From: Dehalococcoidia bacterium
Lineage (GTDB): Bacteria > Chloroflexota > Dehalococcoidia > UBA2979
Length of the DNA stretch: 64,000 nucleotides
Direction of reading: 5' to 3'
NCBI GenBank assembly: GCA_965200555.1
Contig: OZ241365.1
Location: 1,832,442-1,896,441, forward strand
Position 1 is the stretch's first letter. Each line of letters begins with the position of its first letter. Shown here one piece after another: positions 48,201-54,200 of the stretch. Made by a program: the position numbers.

Positions 48201-51200
48201 TCGCCGTCGCGCTGGACGAGGCCGTTGTGCATCCAGATGCGCGCGAACGAGCCGGGGCCGGTCACGGCCTCGGCCTGCGCGATCTCGTTCTCGTGGTGCG
48301 GGAACACGAGGTCGAGCCCGCCGCCGTGGATCTCGAACGACGCGCCGAGGTAGCGCTGCGACATCGCCGAGCACTCGATGTGCCAGCCGGGCCGCCCCGC
48401 GCCCCACGGCGAGGGCCACGAGGGCTCGCCCGGCTTCGCCGCCTTCCACAGCGCGAAGTCGAGCGCGTACTCCTTGCCCTCGCCCGGTTCGAGGCGCGCG
48501 CCGGCGCGCAGCTGGCCGATGTCGCGGCGGGAGAGCTTGCCGTAGTCCCCGGCGGCGCGCACGCGGAAGTAGACGTCGCCGGCCGCGGTGGCGTAGCCGT
48601 AGCCGCGCTCCACGATCGCCGCGATCGCCTCGGCGATGGTGTCGATGTGGCCGGTCACGCGCGGGCGCTCGTCGGGGAAGACGAGGTTGAGCGCGCGCTG
48701 CTGCTCCTCCCACGCCCCGATGTGCTCCGCGGCGAGATCGAGGGGGTCGCGGCCGAGTTCGGCGGCGCGCCCGATCACGTTGTCGTCGATGTCGGTGTAG
48801 TTGGAGACGTAGCGCACCTCGTGGCCGCCGGCCGGGTTGCCGGGCCAGCGCAGGTAGCGCACGAGCACGTCGTAGACGATGGCGGCGAGGGCGTGGCCGG
48901 CGTGGGATTCGGCGTAGGGGGTGACGCCGCAGACGTACACGCCGACGCGCCCGCCGGGGGGCGGGCGCAGCTCCTCGGCGCGGCCCGTCAGCGTGCTGAC
49001 GAGGCGCATCGCGGGCGCTCGTCCTGCCCCGCCGCGGGCGCCGCGGACGCGGCGGCGGCTACGGCTGCTGCTCCCCGGCCGGTCCGCCGTCGAAGCCGCC
49101 GGGCGAGGCCGCGCCGGCGGGCGCGGCGTCCGGCGCCGGCCGCTCGCGTTCGAGGGCGGAGACGCGCCGCTCCAGCTCCTCGATCCGGTCCCACTCGGGA
49201 TCGGGAAGCCGCTCGACGGTGTCGTTGCCGCTGTTGGTGAAGGCCACGACGTGGCCGGGCACGCCGACGACGGTGGCGTTGGGCGGCACGCTGGAGACGA
49301 CGACGGCGCCCGCGCCGATGCGCGAGTCGTGGCCGATGGTGACGTGGCCGATGATCTTCGCCCCCGCGCCGACGACGACGCGATCCTCGAGCGTGGGGTG
49401 GCGCTTCTCGCGCCGCGTCGAGGTGCCGCCGAGGGTGACGCCCTGGTAGAGGTGGCAGTCGTCGCCGATCTCGGTCGTCTCGCCGATCACGACGCCCATG
49501 CCGTGGTCGATGAAGCAGCGGCGGCCGATCGAGGCCTCGGGGTGGATCTCGATGCCGGTGAGGAAGCGCGCGACGTGCGAGATCAGGCGCGGCAGCATCG
49601 GCAGGCCGAGCAGCGACATCTGGTGGGTGAGGCGGTGCACGGCGAGGGCGTGGACGCCGGGGTAGGTGAGCGCGACCTCGAGCGCCCCGCGCGCGGCGGG
49701 ATCGCGCTCCTGCGCCGCCTCGACGTCCTCGCGCACCGCGCGCAGCCAGCTCATCGCGCCCCCTCGCGCCGCCGCCATGATCGCACGCCGGCGCGCGCCC
49801 GCGCCACCTGCCGCGCCGCGAGGCGGGCGTAGCGGGCGGTGCTCGCTCAGTCCTCGCAGGCCTCGGGGTGGCGGCGCAGCCAGCCGAAGAGCGCCTCGGC
49901 GGCCCACCGGTGGCCTTGCGCGTTCCAGTGGTGGTCGTTCGGCCAGCGGGCGTCCTCGATGCGTCCGCCGTGGCTCACGATCCAGTCGTGCTGGTCGATC
50001 ACGGGGATGCCGAGGGGGCCGGCCATGCCGCGCAGGACGGCGTTCGTGCGGCTGTCCGCGCCTCCGTTCTCGTGCGTGGCGAGGATGACGATCGCGGCTC
50101 CGTCGCGGTCGGCGCGCCGCTTGAATTCGGCGAGCGCCCAGGCGGTGAACTCGAGCGCCTCGGCGAAGAGGGGCGGCGGGTCGTCCACGAGGTACAGCGC
50201 GTCCCAGTCCGGACCGTGGTTCGTCGGCTCCCAGCCGTCGAGGATCCACCCGTAGCCGGGGCGGGCGGCCAGCAGCTCGGCCCGCCGGGGGAGCGAGGGC
50301 CGCCGCTCGTCGGGGAGCCAGGCGCGGCGGCGGGCGTCGAGCCAGCGCGCGAACAGCGAGCGGCCGGTCAGCGCCCGCGCCGCCGTCTCGATCCGGTCCG
50401 GGCGCGGAGGCGCGACCAGGCCCCACAGCCAGGGCATCGCGTGCTCCGCGTATCCGGGGTCGGGAGGGCGCAGCCGCACGCTCCCGTCCTCCGCGCGCCC
50501 GGGGAGGGCGAAGGGCGCGCGGTCGGGGTTCCAGCCCCAGCGGATCGCCTGCTGCGCCGCGGAGTGGTCGGAGAAATCGTTGTGGAAGAAGACCAGCGCC
50601 AGCAGGTTGGGCCGCAGCGCACGCGCGTACTCGTCGTAGTACGGCAGCTGGTTGGCCTGCCCCGTGCCCTGCCGCCCCCACGCCGAGGCGGTGACGTCCA
50701 GCTCCGGCAGCGCGGCGGCAGCGAGCGCCTCGAGGCGCACGTGCAGCTTGTCGGCGACCGGCACCTCGCGCGCGTCCACGTACGAGTCGCCGAAGACGGC
50801 GACGTGGCAGCTCGCCGCGGCGCGCGCCGGATCGGGCGGCTCGCGGTCGAGGAAGCCCAGGCTGTTCGCGCGCTGCACGATCCAGTAGTCGAGGCCGTTG
50901 GTGTGGCGCACCTCGGCGTGCGGCTCGTAGAGCACGCCCACCCCCGGCACGAAGCGCGAGGGCGCGGAGCGTTCCTCGAACGGCGGGGCGGTCAGCCGCA
51001 GCCACGCCTCGCCCGCGAGGGCGATCAGCGCGAGGCCGCCGAGGATCAGCGCCGCGTTCCAGCCCGCGATGCGCGCCAGCCGGACGAACGTCGGGGGAGT
51101 ACGCCGGGTCGTCATGCCGCGCCCGATCGTCGCACACCTCCGGGTGGCGGCGCAGCCAGTCGAGGATCGCCTCGGCGGCCCACCGGTGGCCTTGCGGCGT

Positions 51201-54200
51201 CCAGTGGATGTCGTGGGGGAAGTGGGCGTCCCCGGCGCGCCCGCCACGGCTCGCGATCCACTCGCGCTGGCCGATCACGGGGATGCCGAGGGGTTCGGCC
51301 ATGCCGCGCAGGACGGCGGATTCGCGGGCGCCGGGGCCGCCCATGTGGTGCACGGACAGGATCGCGAGCGCGGCGCCGTCGCGGTCGGCGCGGCGCTTGA
51401 ACCCGGCGAGCGCCCAGGCGGTGAACTCGAGCGCCTCGGCGAAGAGGGGCGGCGGGTCGGACAGGATCATCCAGCCCGTCCAGCCGGGCGGCGGCCGCCA
51501 GCCGTCGGCGATCCAGGCGTAGCCGGGCCGCCGGCTCAGCGCCTCGGCACGCCCGGCGAGCGAATCCGGCCGGCCGGGGAACAGCGCGCGCCGCTTGCCG
51601 TCCAGCCAGCGCGCGAAGAGCGAGCGCCCGGTCAGCGCCGAGGCCGCGGCCTCGCGCCAGCCTCCGGGCCGGATCGCTCCCGCGCGGTACCCGGGGTGCG
51701 GCGGGCGCAGCCGCACGCCGCCGTCCTCGCCGCGTTCGGGGTAGGCGAAGGGCATCCGCGTGGGATCGCGATCCCCGTACAGCGCCGACAGCACGGCGGA
51801 GTTGCCCGCGAAGTCGTCCTTGTGGAACACGAGCACCACGAGGTTCGGGCGGAGGCTCCGGATGTGGCGATCGTAGTACGGCAGCTGGTTGGCCTGCGCC
51901 GTGCCCGGGTAGCCGAAGGCCGAGGCGGTGACGTCCGGCTCCGGCGCCTCGCGCGCGGCGAGCGCCTCGAGGCGCACGTGGGACTTGCTGGCGATCGCCA
52001 CCTCGCGCCCGGCCACGAACGAGTCGCCGACTACGGCGACGTGGCAGCTCGCCGCCGCGCGCTCCGGGTCCGGCGGCTCGCGGTCGAGAAAGCCGAGGCT
52101 GTTGGCGCGCTGCGTCGTCCAGAAATCGAGGTGGTTCGTGTACCGCGCCTCGGCGTGCGGCTCGTAGAGCACGCCCAGCCCCGGCACGAAGCGCGAGGAC
52201 GATGCGGCGCCGAAGGACGGCGCGGTCAGCCGCAGCCACGCCTCGCCCGCGAGGGCGACGAGCGCGAGGCCGGCGAGGACCAGCGCCGCGTTCCAGCCCG
52301 CGATGCGCGCCAGCCGAACGAATATTCGGGGGGGGGGGGGGGTGATATGTCTAGTCACGCCGCGCCCGATCCTCGCAGACCTCGGGGTGGCGGCGCAGCC
52401 AGCCGAACAGCGCCTCGGCGGCCCACCGGTGGCCCTGCGGCGTCCAGTGGGGGTCGTCCGGCCAGCGGGCGTCCCCGGCGCGCCCGCCGGAGCGCGCGAT
52501 CCACTCGCGCTGGCCGATCACGGGGATGCCGAGGGGTTCGGCCATGCCGCGCAGGACGGCGAGAGCGCGCCCGTCGCTGCCGTCCTCGTGCGCGGCGAGG
52601 ACGACGATCGCGGCCCCGCCCGCGTCGGCGCGGCTCCTGAACCCGGCGAGCGCCCACGCGGTGAATTCGAGCGCCTCGGCGAAGACGGGCGGCGGGTCGT
52701 CCGCGAGCAGGCCTTCGGCGAGCGGGAGCGCGTCCGGCTCCCAGCCGTCGAGGACCCACCCGTAGCCGGGGCGGGCGGCCAGCGTCTCCGCCCGCGCGGC
52801 GAGCGGGGGCAGCGCTCCCGGATCGTCGCCCGCGAGGGCGCGGCGCTTGCCGTCGAGCCAGCGCAGGAACAGCGAGCGGCCGGCCACGGCCCCGGCGGCC
52901 TCCTCGTACCAGGGGCCGGAGGCGGGCAGCGGCGCGGGCGGGCGGAACCAGGGCAGCGCGTTCTCCGCGTAGCGGGGGTCGGGAGGGCGCAGCCGCACGG
53001 CGCCGTCCTCGCCGCGCGCGGGCAGGGCGTAGGGCGCGCCGCCGGGGTCCCAGCCCCAGCGCAGCGCCGCCGTCGCCGGCGAGTTGCCGGGGAAGTCGCC
53101 GGCGGCGACGACCAGCGCCAGCAGGTCGGGAGCGAGCAGGCGCGCGTAGGCGTCGTGGAACGCCAGCTGGGCGGCCTGCCCCGCGAAGCGCCGCCCCCAG
53201 GCCGAGGCGGTGACGTCCAGCTCCGGCGCCTCGCGCGCGGCGATCGCCTCGAGGCGCACCTGCAGCTTGTCGGCGATCGCGACCTCGCGCGCCTCGACGA
53301 ACGAGCCGCCGATGACGGCGACGTGGCAGCTGGCGGCGGCGCGATCGGGGGCGGGCGGCTCGCGGTCGAGGAAACCGAGGCTGTTGGCGCGCTGGGTCGT
53401 CCAGTAGTCGCGGCCGTCGGTGGAGCGCACCTCGGCGTGCGGCTCGTAGAGCACGCCGACGCCCGGCACGAAGCGCGAGGGCGAGGAGGACTCGGCGAAG
53501 GGGGCGTCGGCCCGCAGGTATACCTCGCCGGCGATCGCGATCAGCGCGAGGGCGCCGAGCAGCGCCGCCGCGTTCCAGCCGGCGACGCGCAGGGCGTGCG
53601 CGACGGCGGGGCGGAGCAGGGGCTGCGGCGCCACGGGCTAGTCCGGCTCGAAGGCGTCCGCGTGCGCCCGCGCCGCGGCGACGAGCGCGGGGTCCTGGTC
53701 CTCCTTGCGGAGGAAGCAGTCGCCGATCGCGAGGCAGTCGATGTCCGTGCCGAGGAAGCAGCGGACGGCGTCGGCGGGGGTGCAGACGATGGGTTCGCCG
53801 CGCACGTTGAAGCTGGTGTTGACGAGCACGGGGCAGCCCGTGCGCTCGCCGAAGGCCTCCAGCAGCGCGTGGAAGCGGGGGTGCGTCCCGCGATCGACGG
53901 TCTGCACCCGCGCCGAGCCGTCGACGTGGGTGACGGCCGGGATCTCCGACCGCGCCGCCTCGCCGGGGCCCGCCCACGCGAGGCCGCCCGCGTCCGCCGA
54001 CGCCGCCTCGCCCGCGCCCTCGCCCCCGCCCGCGGCGGCGGAGAGGCGTTCGGGGCGCACGCCGACGGTCAGCAGCATGTAGGGGCTCTCGCGGTCGAGG
54101 CCGAACCACTCGGCGGCGCGCTCGCGGGGGACGCTGGGCGCGAAGGGGCGGAAGGCCTCGCGCAGCTTGACCTTGCGGTTGAGCGTCTCCCGCATCGATG

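Follow-up and report, generated by a model that had tools for sequence, protein, structure and literature searches.

We analysed a 64,000-nucleotide (nt) stretch of contig OZ241365.1 (positions 1,832,442 to 1,896,441, forward strand) from the Dehalococcoidia bacterium assembly GCA_965200555.1, hereafter the window, and focused on array 2, a group of three minus-strand tandem paralogs with an SGNH fold (copies 6, 7, and 8, 53634-49847). Judged from sequence, these genes probably belong to a homopolymer-tract contingency gene family under birth-and-death evolution, in which recombination drives the turnover of gene junctions rather than simple decay. The window had ~75% GC throughout and contained five further paralogs in array 1 (copies 1-5, 14515-8074), with the eight family proteins 61-69% identical to copy 1. 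We compared these genes with orthologous loci from other metagenomes (L005, L006, L007, L008, L017, L019, L020, and L021), among which L020 and L021 are independent short-read assemblies of samples other than the window's. A first-pass annotation had delimited copies 6, 7, and 8, and its coordinates and all of its sequence statements agreed with the sequence. The members of array 2 and the overlap that joins the first two are:

52351..53634, minus strand: copy 6, a tract-less SGNH-fold paralog of 427 amino acids (aa), with a GTG start, the end CGT GAC TAG, block I GGS, and block III GDF.
52351..52358, minus strand: start/stop overlap GTGACTAG, containing both the GTG of copy 7 and the TAG that ends copy 6.
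51126..52358, minus strand: family-homologous part of copy 7, 411 codons, with a GTG start, the end ...HPEVCDD, block I GDS, block III KDDF, and block V HDIHW.
49847..51115, minus strand: copy 8, a tract-less SGNH-fold paralog of 422 aa, with an ATG start, the end ...ACED-TGA, and GDS/NDF/NDHHW intact.

The in-frame G15 run previously noted in copy 7 was present as a pure C15 on the minus strand, and three sister tracts occurred in array 1. The tracts and the conserved flanks of the copy 7 tract are:

52328..52342, minus strand: poly-C tract C15 (G15 on the plus strand), spanning codons 6-11 of copy 7 in the frame of the GTG at 52358.
52343..52355, minus strand: conserved AT-rich 5' tract flank ACTAGACATATCA, built of very rare codons (AGA is 0.8% of Arg).
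52314..52327, minus strand: conserved 3' tract flank GAATATTCGTTCGG, codons CGA ATA TTC GTT (ATA is 1.1% of Ile and GTT 3.8% of Val).
14485..14499, minus strand: sister tract C15 of array 1 copy 1, in frame with the ATG at 14515.
11926..11943, minus strand: sister tract C18 of array 1 copy 3, in frame with the GTG at 11959.
9306..9319, minus strand: sister tract C14 after CA in array 1 copy 5, out of frame with the GTG at 9337, with an in-frame ATG at 9303 just after the tract.

Runs of C14 or longer were expected 0.01 times per window, and the four observed all lay in one junction context, (A/G)TGAC T(A/C)G ACATATCA-C(n)-GAAT(A/G)TTCGTTCGG. Each tract began ~15 nt past a start codon overlapping the upstream stop (in copy 1 the start replaces the stop), and the start/stop overlap arrangement was found again at junctions 2/3 and 4/5 of array 1 and in L005, L007, and L008. 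When tract lengths were simulated for copies 1, 3, 5, and 7, a full-length product resulted at every third length only; the -1 state met a stop after 15-43 codons, and the +1 state gave long off-frame products. Tract length at copy 7 also differed among loci with ~97% identity in their gene bodies, being C15 in the window, C11 after an altered leader in L007, and, out of frame in both cases, A+C15 in L005 and C7 in L021. Proline runs likewise varied, with 3, 4, 5, or 9 residues inside protein clusters of at least 90% identity. Among tract-bearing junctions with at least seven Cs in the recovered loci, some of them T-interrupted, 7/12 were in frame and 5/12 out of frame. Such a mixture is typical of contingency loci and unlike a stably expressed gene or neutral sequence. 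The locus thus combines three of the four features by which contingency loci are recognised, namely an over-long repeat within an open reading frame (ORF), length differences between close relatives, and a change of frame with length (in silico), the fourth being frequent, reversible switching in a clonal population, and the tract is very probably a homopolymer-tract phase-variation switch that would act on each of these genes in cells.

The same module was present in a contig of 58.6% GC, where C14 and C7TC9 tracts occupied the same position and were followed by GAATATACGTTCGC, along with decayed versions. There the tract and a GAATATNCGTTCG flank precede paralogs located behind DUF5989 and a carbamoyltransferase; the SGNH copies of this contig were ~48% identical to copy 8 and the carbamoyltransferase 70% identical to the window's. 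Tracts of this kind at 58.6% GC indicate that the module is not a by-product of high GC. They also bear on an alternative in which the poly-C is a proline-rich linker that became homopolymeric through high GC, its lengths neutral and its out-of-frame cases sequencing errors. Such a linker would account for the PPP-like motifs that are widespread before the anchor in distant homologs lacking a homopolymer, for in-frame length variants (proline runs of 3, 4, 5, or 9 residues inside protein clusters of at least 90% identity), and for the error-prone nature of long homopolymers. We nevertheless consider it unlikely. GC bias leaves the tracts of the 58.6%-GC genome unexplained, and with CCC at ~33% of Pro codons in the window, five to six CCC in a row are unexpected. 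The out-of-frame tracts were spread across assemblies and platforms, and 6/15 members of one protein cluster and 3/6 of another could be called only from a downstream Met inside the anchor. Conserved flanks made of codons at 1-4% usage argue in addition for selection at the nucleotide level.

Although composed of rare codons (AGA, ATA, and GTT), the tract flanks were conserved between paralogs. RNA structure at the junction was, if anything, lower than in shuffled sequences (z = +1.6), and no structured element was found there. We read the rare-codon flanks and the unstructured RNA as signs that selection keeps the translation start open and the tract sharply bounded. The possibility that the tract serves as a promoter spacer (TAGACA ... 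AATATT) was rejected, since the spacing would be 21 nt and a scan of 47-57 kb contained no sigma-70-like promoter. The same scan returned no minus-strand terminator and a single terminator-like match on the plus strand, which is within chance.

Frame heterogeneity could instead arise mainly at the RNA level, by polymerase slippage on C15-C18, so that all copies are partly expressed and the DNA lengths are secondary. Very long homopolymers are known transcriptional slippage sites in other bacteria, and slippage would explain why out-of-frame tracts and a run-on copy are tolerated. However, G/C runs generally promote slippage less efficiently than A/T runs, and length polymorphism between close relatives was directly observed in the DNA; we regard an RNA-level origin as quite unlikely and favour a switch set by DNA tract length.

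Three further C tracts were seen outside of this junction context. Within the window, a C10 tract at 36520-36529, with AT-rich surroundings, makes up codons 7-10 (TPPP) of the gene for a 576-aa protein (36501-38231, plus strand, TTG start at 36501) that has a signal-peptide-like segment, Gly-rich repeats, and no Pfam family. This protein may add a fifth member to the window's phase-variable envelope or secreted proteins. In the Candidatus Binatia metagenome-assembled genome (MAG) OZ251459.1 (L001), a C16 tract at 4008-4023 makes up codons 10-15 of a 692-aa polytopic membrane protein, also without a Pfam family. The Binatia gene lies directly upstream of a five-copy tandem array of SGNH homologs that are separated by 65-nt spacers and have no tracts, and its product is not homologous to the 576-aa protein. 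The third, a C15/G15 tract in the Vicinamibacterales MAG OZ241896.1 (L004, 15996-16010), occupies the 3' end of a gene for a family-2 glycosyltransferase; ~50 nt downstream of the tract comes another glycosyltransferase gene (GT92/GT2-like), and an SGNH homolog is 5 kb away.

Tract loss followed a graded course across the family. At the start of copy 8, one short run aligned with the tract position:

51093..51097, minus strand: CCCCC remnant in copy 8, homologous in position to the poly-C tract in junction alignments.

The first-pass annotation took this run for a fossil of the switch. Its homologous position (ACT CCC CCG aligns with the tract) and a series leading from C15/C18 through C9TC5, C6TC5, C5TC5, and CCTCCTCC to none agree with that view. 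Intermediates in the relatives were C9TC5 (L007), C6TC5 (L008), and, in L017, ACCCCCTCCCCC, C5TC4, CCTCCTCC, and CTGCCGCCGCCCGCC, with ACCCCCTCCCCC belonging to a copy 87% identical. Decay is not under way in this genome, however: orthologs at 89-97% identity share the copy 8 N-terminus, and the tract loss in copy 8 is old and stable. A different change affected the codon following the tract, which is ATG rather than ATA in several copies (GAATGTTCG vs GAATATTCG; window 9303 in copy 5 and 11932 in copy 3, and L005 2064). A post-tract ATG was present in 3/4 of the out-of-frame tracts viewed in the window lineage (copy 5, L005 copy 7, and the second and third junctions of L008), which suggests a second escape route from the switch beside tract interruption.

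Copy 7 differed from its neighbours at its 3' end as well, where the sequence was exactly as first described and the ORF continued for more than 2 kb through copy 8 and cysE:

51108..51125, minus strand: stop-less 7/8 junction CGGGCGCGGCATGACGAC, in which codon 51119-51117 is CGG.
49059..51125, minus strand: 688-codon run-on that extends the copy 7 ORF, off-frame across copy 8 and then in the cysE frame as far as the cysE stop.

After ...HPEVCDD, copy 7 reads CGG GCG CGG CAT GAC GAC CCG GCG TAC TCC CCC GAC GTT, and the whole ORF has 1099 codons, ending at the cysE stop (49059). The run-on frame carried no coding signal across copy 8, and copy 7 was the only one of ~60 window genes in which the coding signal in third-position GC content (GC3) ended more than ~250 nt before the ORF stop. 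Off-frame ORFs of 400-1000 codons were common in the window; the 2-kb length of the run-on and the in-frame status of cysE are consequences of the 75% GC. The start of copy 8 was confirmed at the ATG at 51115, inside the junction, with an N-terminus common to orthologs, and copy 8 is gene-called at 422 aa in the source genome. The TAG end that copy 7 lacks had been called canonical. Copy 7 does lack it, but comparison of the eight junctions and ends revealed three end types, RARRD-TAG in copies 2, 4, and 6, ...CED-TGA in copies 3, 5, and 8, and ...RARA-TGA inside ATGA in copy 1, so that TAG is not the family norm. The RARRD-TAG end is limited to the three copies that precede a tract-bearing copy (2, 4, and 6).

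Orthologous junctions keep a TGA followed by GC and the ATG, reading CGG GCG TGA in L006, L007, and L019 and CGG GCC TGA in L005, and the copy 7 orthologs of L005 and L007 (~97.4% nt identity to the window copy) stop after ...CDDRA. Relative to these, the window junction has a T-to-C change and a 1-nt deletion, which together remove the TGA and shift the frame off the back-up TGA of the ATGA. A difference this small could be an assembly or polishing artefact from reads mis-mapped in a repeat array, with the true end a TGA and the true junction in 51090-51130 CGGGCGTGAGCATGAC rather than CGGGCGCGGCATGAC; paralog arrays are prone to consensus errors, and four orthologous loci have TGA at this spot. 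Yet the identical stop-less junction was recovered four times, in the window, once in L020, and twice in L021, and no other window gene had a frameshift-like break in its coding signal. Its presence in two independent assemblies argues that the stop loss is not an assembly error, and the artefact is extremely unlikely, as is the sequencing error that the first-pass annotation had named as what would overturn its claim. In L020 the gene preceding the stop-less junction combines the body of copy 6 with a 3' end of copy 7 type; in L021 the junction occurs after a frameshifted copy 7 and again between two copy 8 duplicates (8a and 8b). The copy 8 genes of the stop-less carriers were 97.0-98.3% identical to each other vs 95.5-97.5% to those of stop-bearing loci, which indicates that the allele marks a sub-lineage and was copied by unequal crossing-over. 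By this comparison, the lost stop is a junction allele of one sub-lineage and not a lesion private to this genome.

A second and independent SGNH-cysE run-on at this locus was observed in another relative (protein P0182, 692 aa), whose final SGNH copy ahead of cysE has a frameshift ~40 codons from its end and continues in frame, with no stop, into cysE. The C-terminus of P0123, a copy 1 ortholog, is frameshifted also. A programmed +1 frameshift at TCC-CCC-G that would fuse copies 7 and 8 was set aside, as the fusion would presumably leave its second domain on the wrong side of the membrane and a stimulatory context is lacking.

The composition of the stop-less junction pointed to its likely origin. 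Its left half (GATCGGGCGCGGC-A/GTGAC) is identical to tract-type junctions, whose TAG is located just to the right, and L008 holds exactly cgggcgcggcATGAC-TAG; its right half is of the tract-less copy 8 type, whose stop is located just to the left. Most simply, the junction would be a recombinant of the two junction types, generated by a crossover or micro-conversion within TGAC, with two point changes as the alternative origin.

Copy number varied at the locus in the manner expected from such exchanges, and the birth-and-death evolution proposed earlier was borne out by the unequal-crossover products of the relatives and by their range from 2 to at least 7 copies. Counting the SGNH copies between the carbamoyltransferase and cysE, or to the contig end, gave:

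L019: 2 copies.
L006: at least 2 copies (contig ends).
L020: at least 2 copies (contig ends).
Window: 3 copies.
L005: 4 copies.
L007: at least 4 copies.
L021: at least 4 copies.
L017: at least 7 copies.

In L006, L019, and L020 the copy 6 body leads into a 3' end of copy 7 type, which means that copy 7 was deleted; the crossover responsible in L006 maps to the last ~40 nt of the gene. Between the L021 copies 8a and 8b there are 7 nt differences, none of them outside the final 90 nt. Exchange also affected 5' ends: in the mosaic P0168 the N-terminus is of copy 4 type and the body that of copy 8, and L005 copy 7 has the 5' end of window copy 3. Outside of the eight copies, a copy 2-like protein of 447 aa (P0048) is encoded on the same contig as the window, and the source genome therefore holds at least one more member or array. 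Exact-protein look-ups of P0026 and of window copy 6 matched no contig. A scan of genome contigs with the single copy 8 protein returned only distant loci among the matches listed (Binatia and Vicinamibacterales, 47-53% identity), and a scan of metagenome contigs with the junction pattern GACATATCA-N(5-35)-GAATNTTCGTTCGG gave seven low-GC marine chance matches, none relevant.

We propose the following mechanism for the family. A 5' module would consist of a start overlapping the previous stop, five leader codons, a poly-C read as prolines, an AT-rich flank, and a membrane anchor. Slipped-strand mispairing would alter tract length and move the gene body in or out of frame, each copy switching independently. 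A copy could leave the switch when its tract is interrupted or lost (copies 8 and 2) or when an ATG appears directly behind the tract. The highly conserved 5' and 3' ends of the genes would drive unequal crossing-over and gene conversion, changing copy number and shuffling junctions. One such exchange may have joined a tract-type left half (...CGGGCGCGGC-A/GTGAC, with TAG to the right) to a tract-less right half (ATGAC-GACCCGG..., with TGA to the left); because the two stops are positioned outside the joined halves, the recombinant junction would carry none. Whenever copy 7 is in phase (C15 as assembled), a run-on product of 1099 residues would be made. Most likely this protein has no use and is tolerated only because copy 7 can be dispensed with or switched.

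The stop-less junction might alternatively be a functional toggle, in which run-through from an in-phase copy 7 occludes the copy 8 start and the +1 state ends at ATGA and re-initiates copy 8. With C16 or C13, 415 codons are read before a stop at precisely 51112-51114, which overlaps the ATG at 51115, and the allele has persisted and been duplicated in its sub-lineage. Against this, long off-frame ORFs ending at ATGA overlaps are expected at 75% GC, the gene upstream of the junction in L020 is a tract-less copy 6 for which no toggle is possible, and the upstream copy 7 in L021 is frameshifted, with C7 only. A toggle is very unlikely in our view.

The bodies of copies 6 and 7 both depart from the SGNH motif consensus. 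The motif changes reported for copy 6 (GGS in block I and GDF in block III, with the nucleophile Ser kept) were confirmed, but they do not represent decay. They are fixed in 5/5 orthologs, as seen directly in L005, L006, and L007 and through ~97% full-length identity in L019 and L020, and the ratio of nonsynonymous to synonymous substitution rates (dN/dS) was 0.29-0.54. Copy 6 is always the first gene after the carbamoyltransferase and never bears a tract; its sequence record is that of a maintained, constitutive paralog under purifying selection, with catalytic divergence predicted. Copy 7 is likewise without the oxyanion-hole Asn of block III (KDDF), a change conserved in its orthologs and absent from the first-pass annotation. 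Its 411-codon body aligns without gaps in frame, has no internal stop, and keeps the invariant residues of the family, while the L021 ortholog carries an internal frameshift.

An AlphaFold2 model of copy 8 built with 50 homologs had a predicted local distance difference test (pLDDT) score of 92 and consisted of an N-terminal helix (residues 8-42) and a globular domain. The helix is modelled as a membrane anchor, which would imply an extracytoplasmic location. Foldseek matched the domain to 43 PDB entries at E<=1e-3, and nearly all of those listed were SGNH/GDSL enzymes; TesA, Axe2, and esterases of acetyl-xylan and mannan were among the neighbours, at target-normalised TM-scores of 0.6-0.76. 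In Pfam and NCBIfam the matches, to GDSL, AlgX, and LA_2490-type SGNH families, were all sub-threshold: Lipase_GDSL_2 scored 25-26 bits (cutoff 32.9), ALGX 15-19 (26.5), and NF047475 18.5 (325). A profile search against PDB sequences found no relative. At the level of the fold, then, the model supports the SGNH label.

All copies other than copy 6 had GDS in block I; the GGS of copy 6 keeps the Ser without the Asp. The block II Gly and the C-terminal Asp/His were present in most copies. Block III was NDF in 6/8 copies, including copy 8, with GDF in copy 6 and DDF in copy 7. Block V was D-x-H-W in 8/8 copies (NDHHW, HDIHW, and DDPHW), one residue shorter than the textbook D-x-x-H, and the family has an insertion of ~110-130 residues in the SGNH fold. 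The fold and, in most copies, the GDS Ser, the block II Gly, the block III Asn, and the C-terminal Asp/His are shared with SGNH/GDSL hydrolases such as AlgX/AlgJ and Axe2, in contrast to the insertion, the D-x-H-W block, and the off-consensus copies 6 and 7. Based on the model, the family probably comprises membrane-anchored extracytoplasmic esterases or acyl-transferases acting on envelope glycan or lipid.

Gene order around array 2 was ispD, ispF, McrB, McrC, SxtJ-like, DUF5989, carbamoyltransferase, copies 6-7-8, cysE, and cysS. The genes bordering the array are:

55747..56172, minus strand: SxtJ-like small membrane protein, 141 aa (Pfam SxtJ E=3e-4, below the gathering score), first gene of the module upstream of array 2.
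55566..55736, minus strand: DUF5989 (SxtK-like) membrane protein, 56 aa (Pfam PF19451 E=1e-20).
53638..55554, minus strand: carbamoyltransferase of NodU/CmcH type, 638 aa (Pfam Carbam_trans_N 8e-104 and Carbam_trans_C 6e-72).
49059..49754, minus strand: cysE (serine acetyltransferase), 231 aa (Pfam Hexapep and SATase_N), downstream boundary of array 2.

The TAG stop of the carbamoyltransferase ends 3 nt before the copy 6 GTG, and the protein is 70% identical to its L018 homolog. The arrangement of DUF5989, carbamoyltransferase, and SGNH genes was found again in every related locus extending far enough, a 141-aa SxtJ-like gene was at the equivalent position in L007 and L019, and cysE likewise followed the array in L005, L017, and L019. 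Modules of the SxtI/SxtJ/SxtK type combine an O-carbamoyltransferase with two small membrane proteins and were first noted in saxitoxin clusters; papers that name sxtJ together with the carbamoyltransferase include PMC2679770. The order SxtJ-like, DUF5989, carbamoyltransferase directly upstream of the array in the window, L007, L018, and L019 resembles that module; unlike it, the locus has no saxitoxin genes and its SxtJ match is below the Pfam threshold. We found no description in the literature of an association between the SxtJ/DUF5989/carbamoyltransferase module and tandem SGNH paralogs. The array 2 enzymes would act on an envelope glycan or lipid modified by this adjacent module.

McrB (AAA_5) and McrC (56223-59118, minus strand) lie between ispF and the SxtJ/DUF5989/carbamoyltransferase/SGNH cluster, as they also do in L007 and L019. 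The putative phase-variable envelope cluster thus has a restriction system next to it, with ispDF and cysE-cysS flanking the entire block. Three tRNA genes (46469-46843, minus strand), the only Rfam matches in the window, are downstream of cysS and a beta-carbonic anhydrase, and in L019 tRNA genes are followed by tuf, rpmG, secE, nusG, rplK, and rplA.

Several observations weigh against our reading of the family. An in-frame ATG directly follows the tract in copy 3, copy 5, and L005 copy 7, and such copies may be expressed independently of the tract, which may then modulate rather than gate expression. No sequencing platform reads homopolymers of 14-18 bases without frequent errors, and individual ON/OFF calls, including that of the copy 7 C15, are possibly off by one; the tract lengths are those of assemblies, and heterogeneity within populations and reversibility are predictions. 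The window-specific changes of copy 7 were 2 synonymous to 8 nonsynonymous, compared with 16 to 5 in copies 6 and 8 together (Fisher p=0.006), a weak hint that selection on it is relaxed, but the stop-bearing copy 7 of L007 had 3 to 9. Over ~2-3% divergence the stop-less allele has persisted, and in L020 it terminates an otherwise conserved copy 6; this fits poorly with a harmful run-on and suggests tolerance or an unrecognised function. The SGNH assignment, finally, is made on the fold alone, with Pfam and NCBIfam scores below their cutoffs and a D-x-H block V.

The literature describes poly-G/C phase variation at homopolymer contingency loci in Neisseria, Haemophilus, Campylobacter, Helicobacter, and Bordetella pertussis and a 7C tract in M. 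tuberculosis glpK (PMC2831843, PMC1891110, PMC8355987). The family resembles such loci in having a long G/C homopolymer in the 5' end of the ORF, lengths that differ between close relatives, a full protein at every third length, envelope-modifying targets (predicted here), and interrupted tracts as locked alleles. It differs from them in its host, which is uncultured and apparently free-living, with a ~2.5 Mb chromosome of 75% GC, and not a host-adapted pathogen. The tracts are also unusually long (14-18), the switching is deduced here from sequence, and the module and flank are conserved across lineages 16 GC points apart at ~48% protein identity.

The opa family of Neisseria offers a second parallel. 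Multiple opa paralogs have CTCTT repeats in the region coding for the leader peptide, so each has its own frame-setting repeat just behind the start, ahead of the export or anchor signal, with independent ON/OFF states, combinatorial expression, and recombination mosaics. Arrays 1 and 2 share with opa the many paralogs with a frame-setting repeat ahead of an anchor signal and the mosaics between paralogs. In contrast to opa, the repeat is a mononucleotide rather than a pentamer, the genes are tandem and translationally overlapped rather than dispersed, and the products are predicted enzymes rather than adhesins.

The locus offers a natural series of one switch module that runs from intact through interrupted and bypassed to lost, together with mapped unequal-crossover products (2 to at least 7 copies) and a persisting stop-removing junction allele. 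It also carries a warning for annotation, in that at 75% GC a single junction change can produce kilobase-long spurious fusions (copy 7 to cysE), and gene callers drop or mis-start neighbours. To our knowledge, homopolymer phase variation is textbook for host-adapted pathogens and scarcely documented in uncultured, free-living, very high-GC bacteria. More speculatively, the overlap, leader, poly-C, and AT-rich flank may form an ancient, selectively maintained switch module common to divergent free-living soil lineages (75% and 59% GC). On that tentative view, the module would provide combinatorial ON/OFF control of tandem envelope-modifying SGNH enzymes beside a carbamoyltransferase and McrBC, as a general and probably anti-phage contingency strategy in which junction alleles rewire the co-expression of neighbours. 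If the switching is true, the locus would be a tractable model of the birth, locking, and killing of contingency gene families, and it would imply variable carbamoyl/acyl decoration of the envelope, possibly phage-driven, in a lineage known only from metagenomes.

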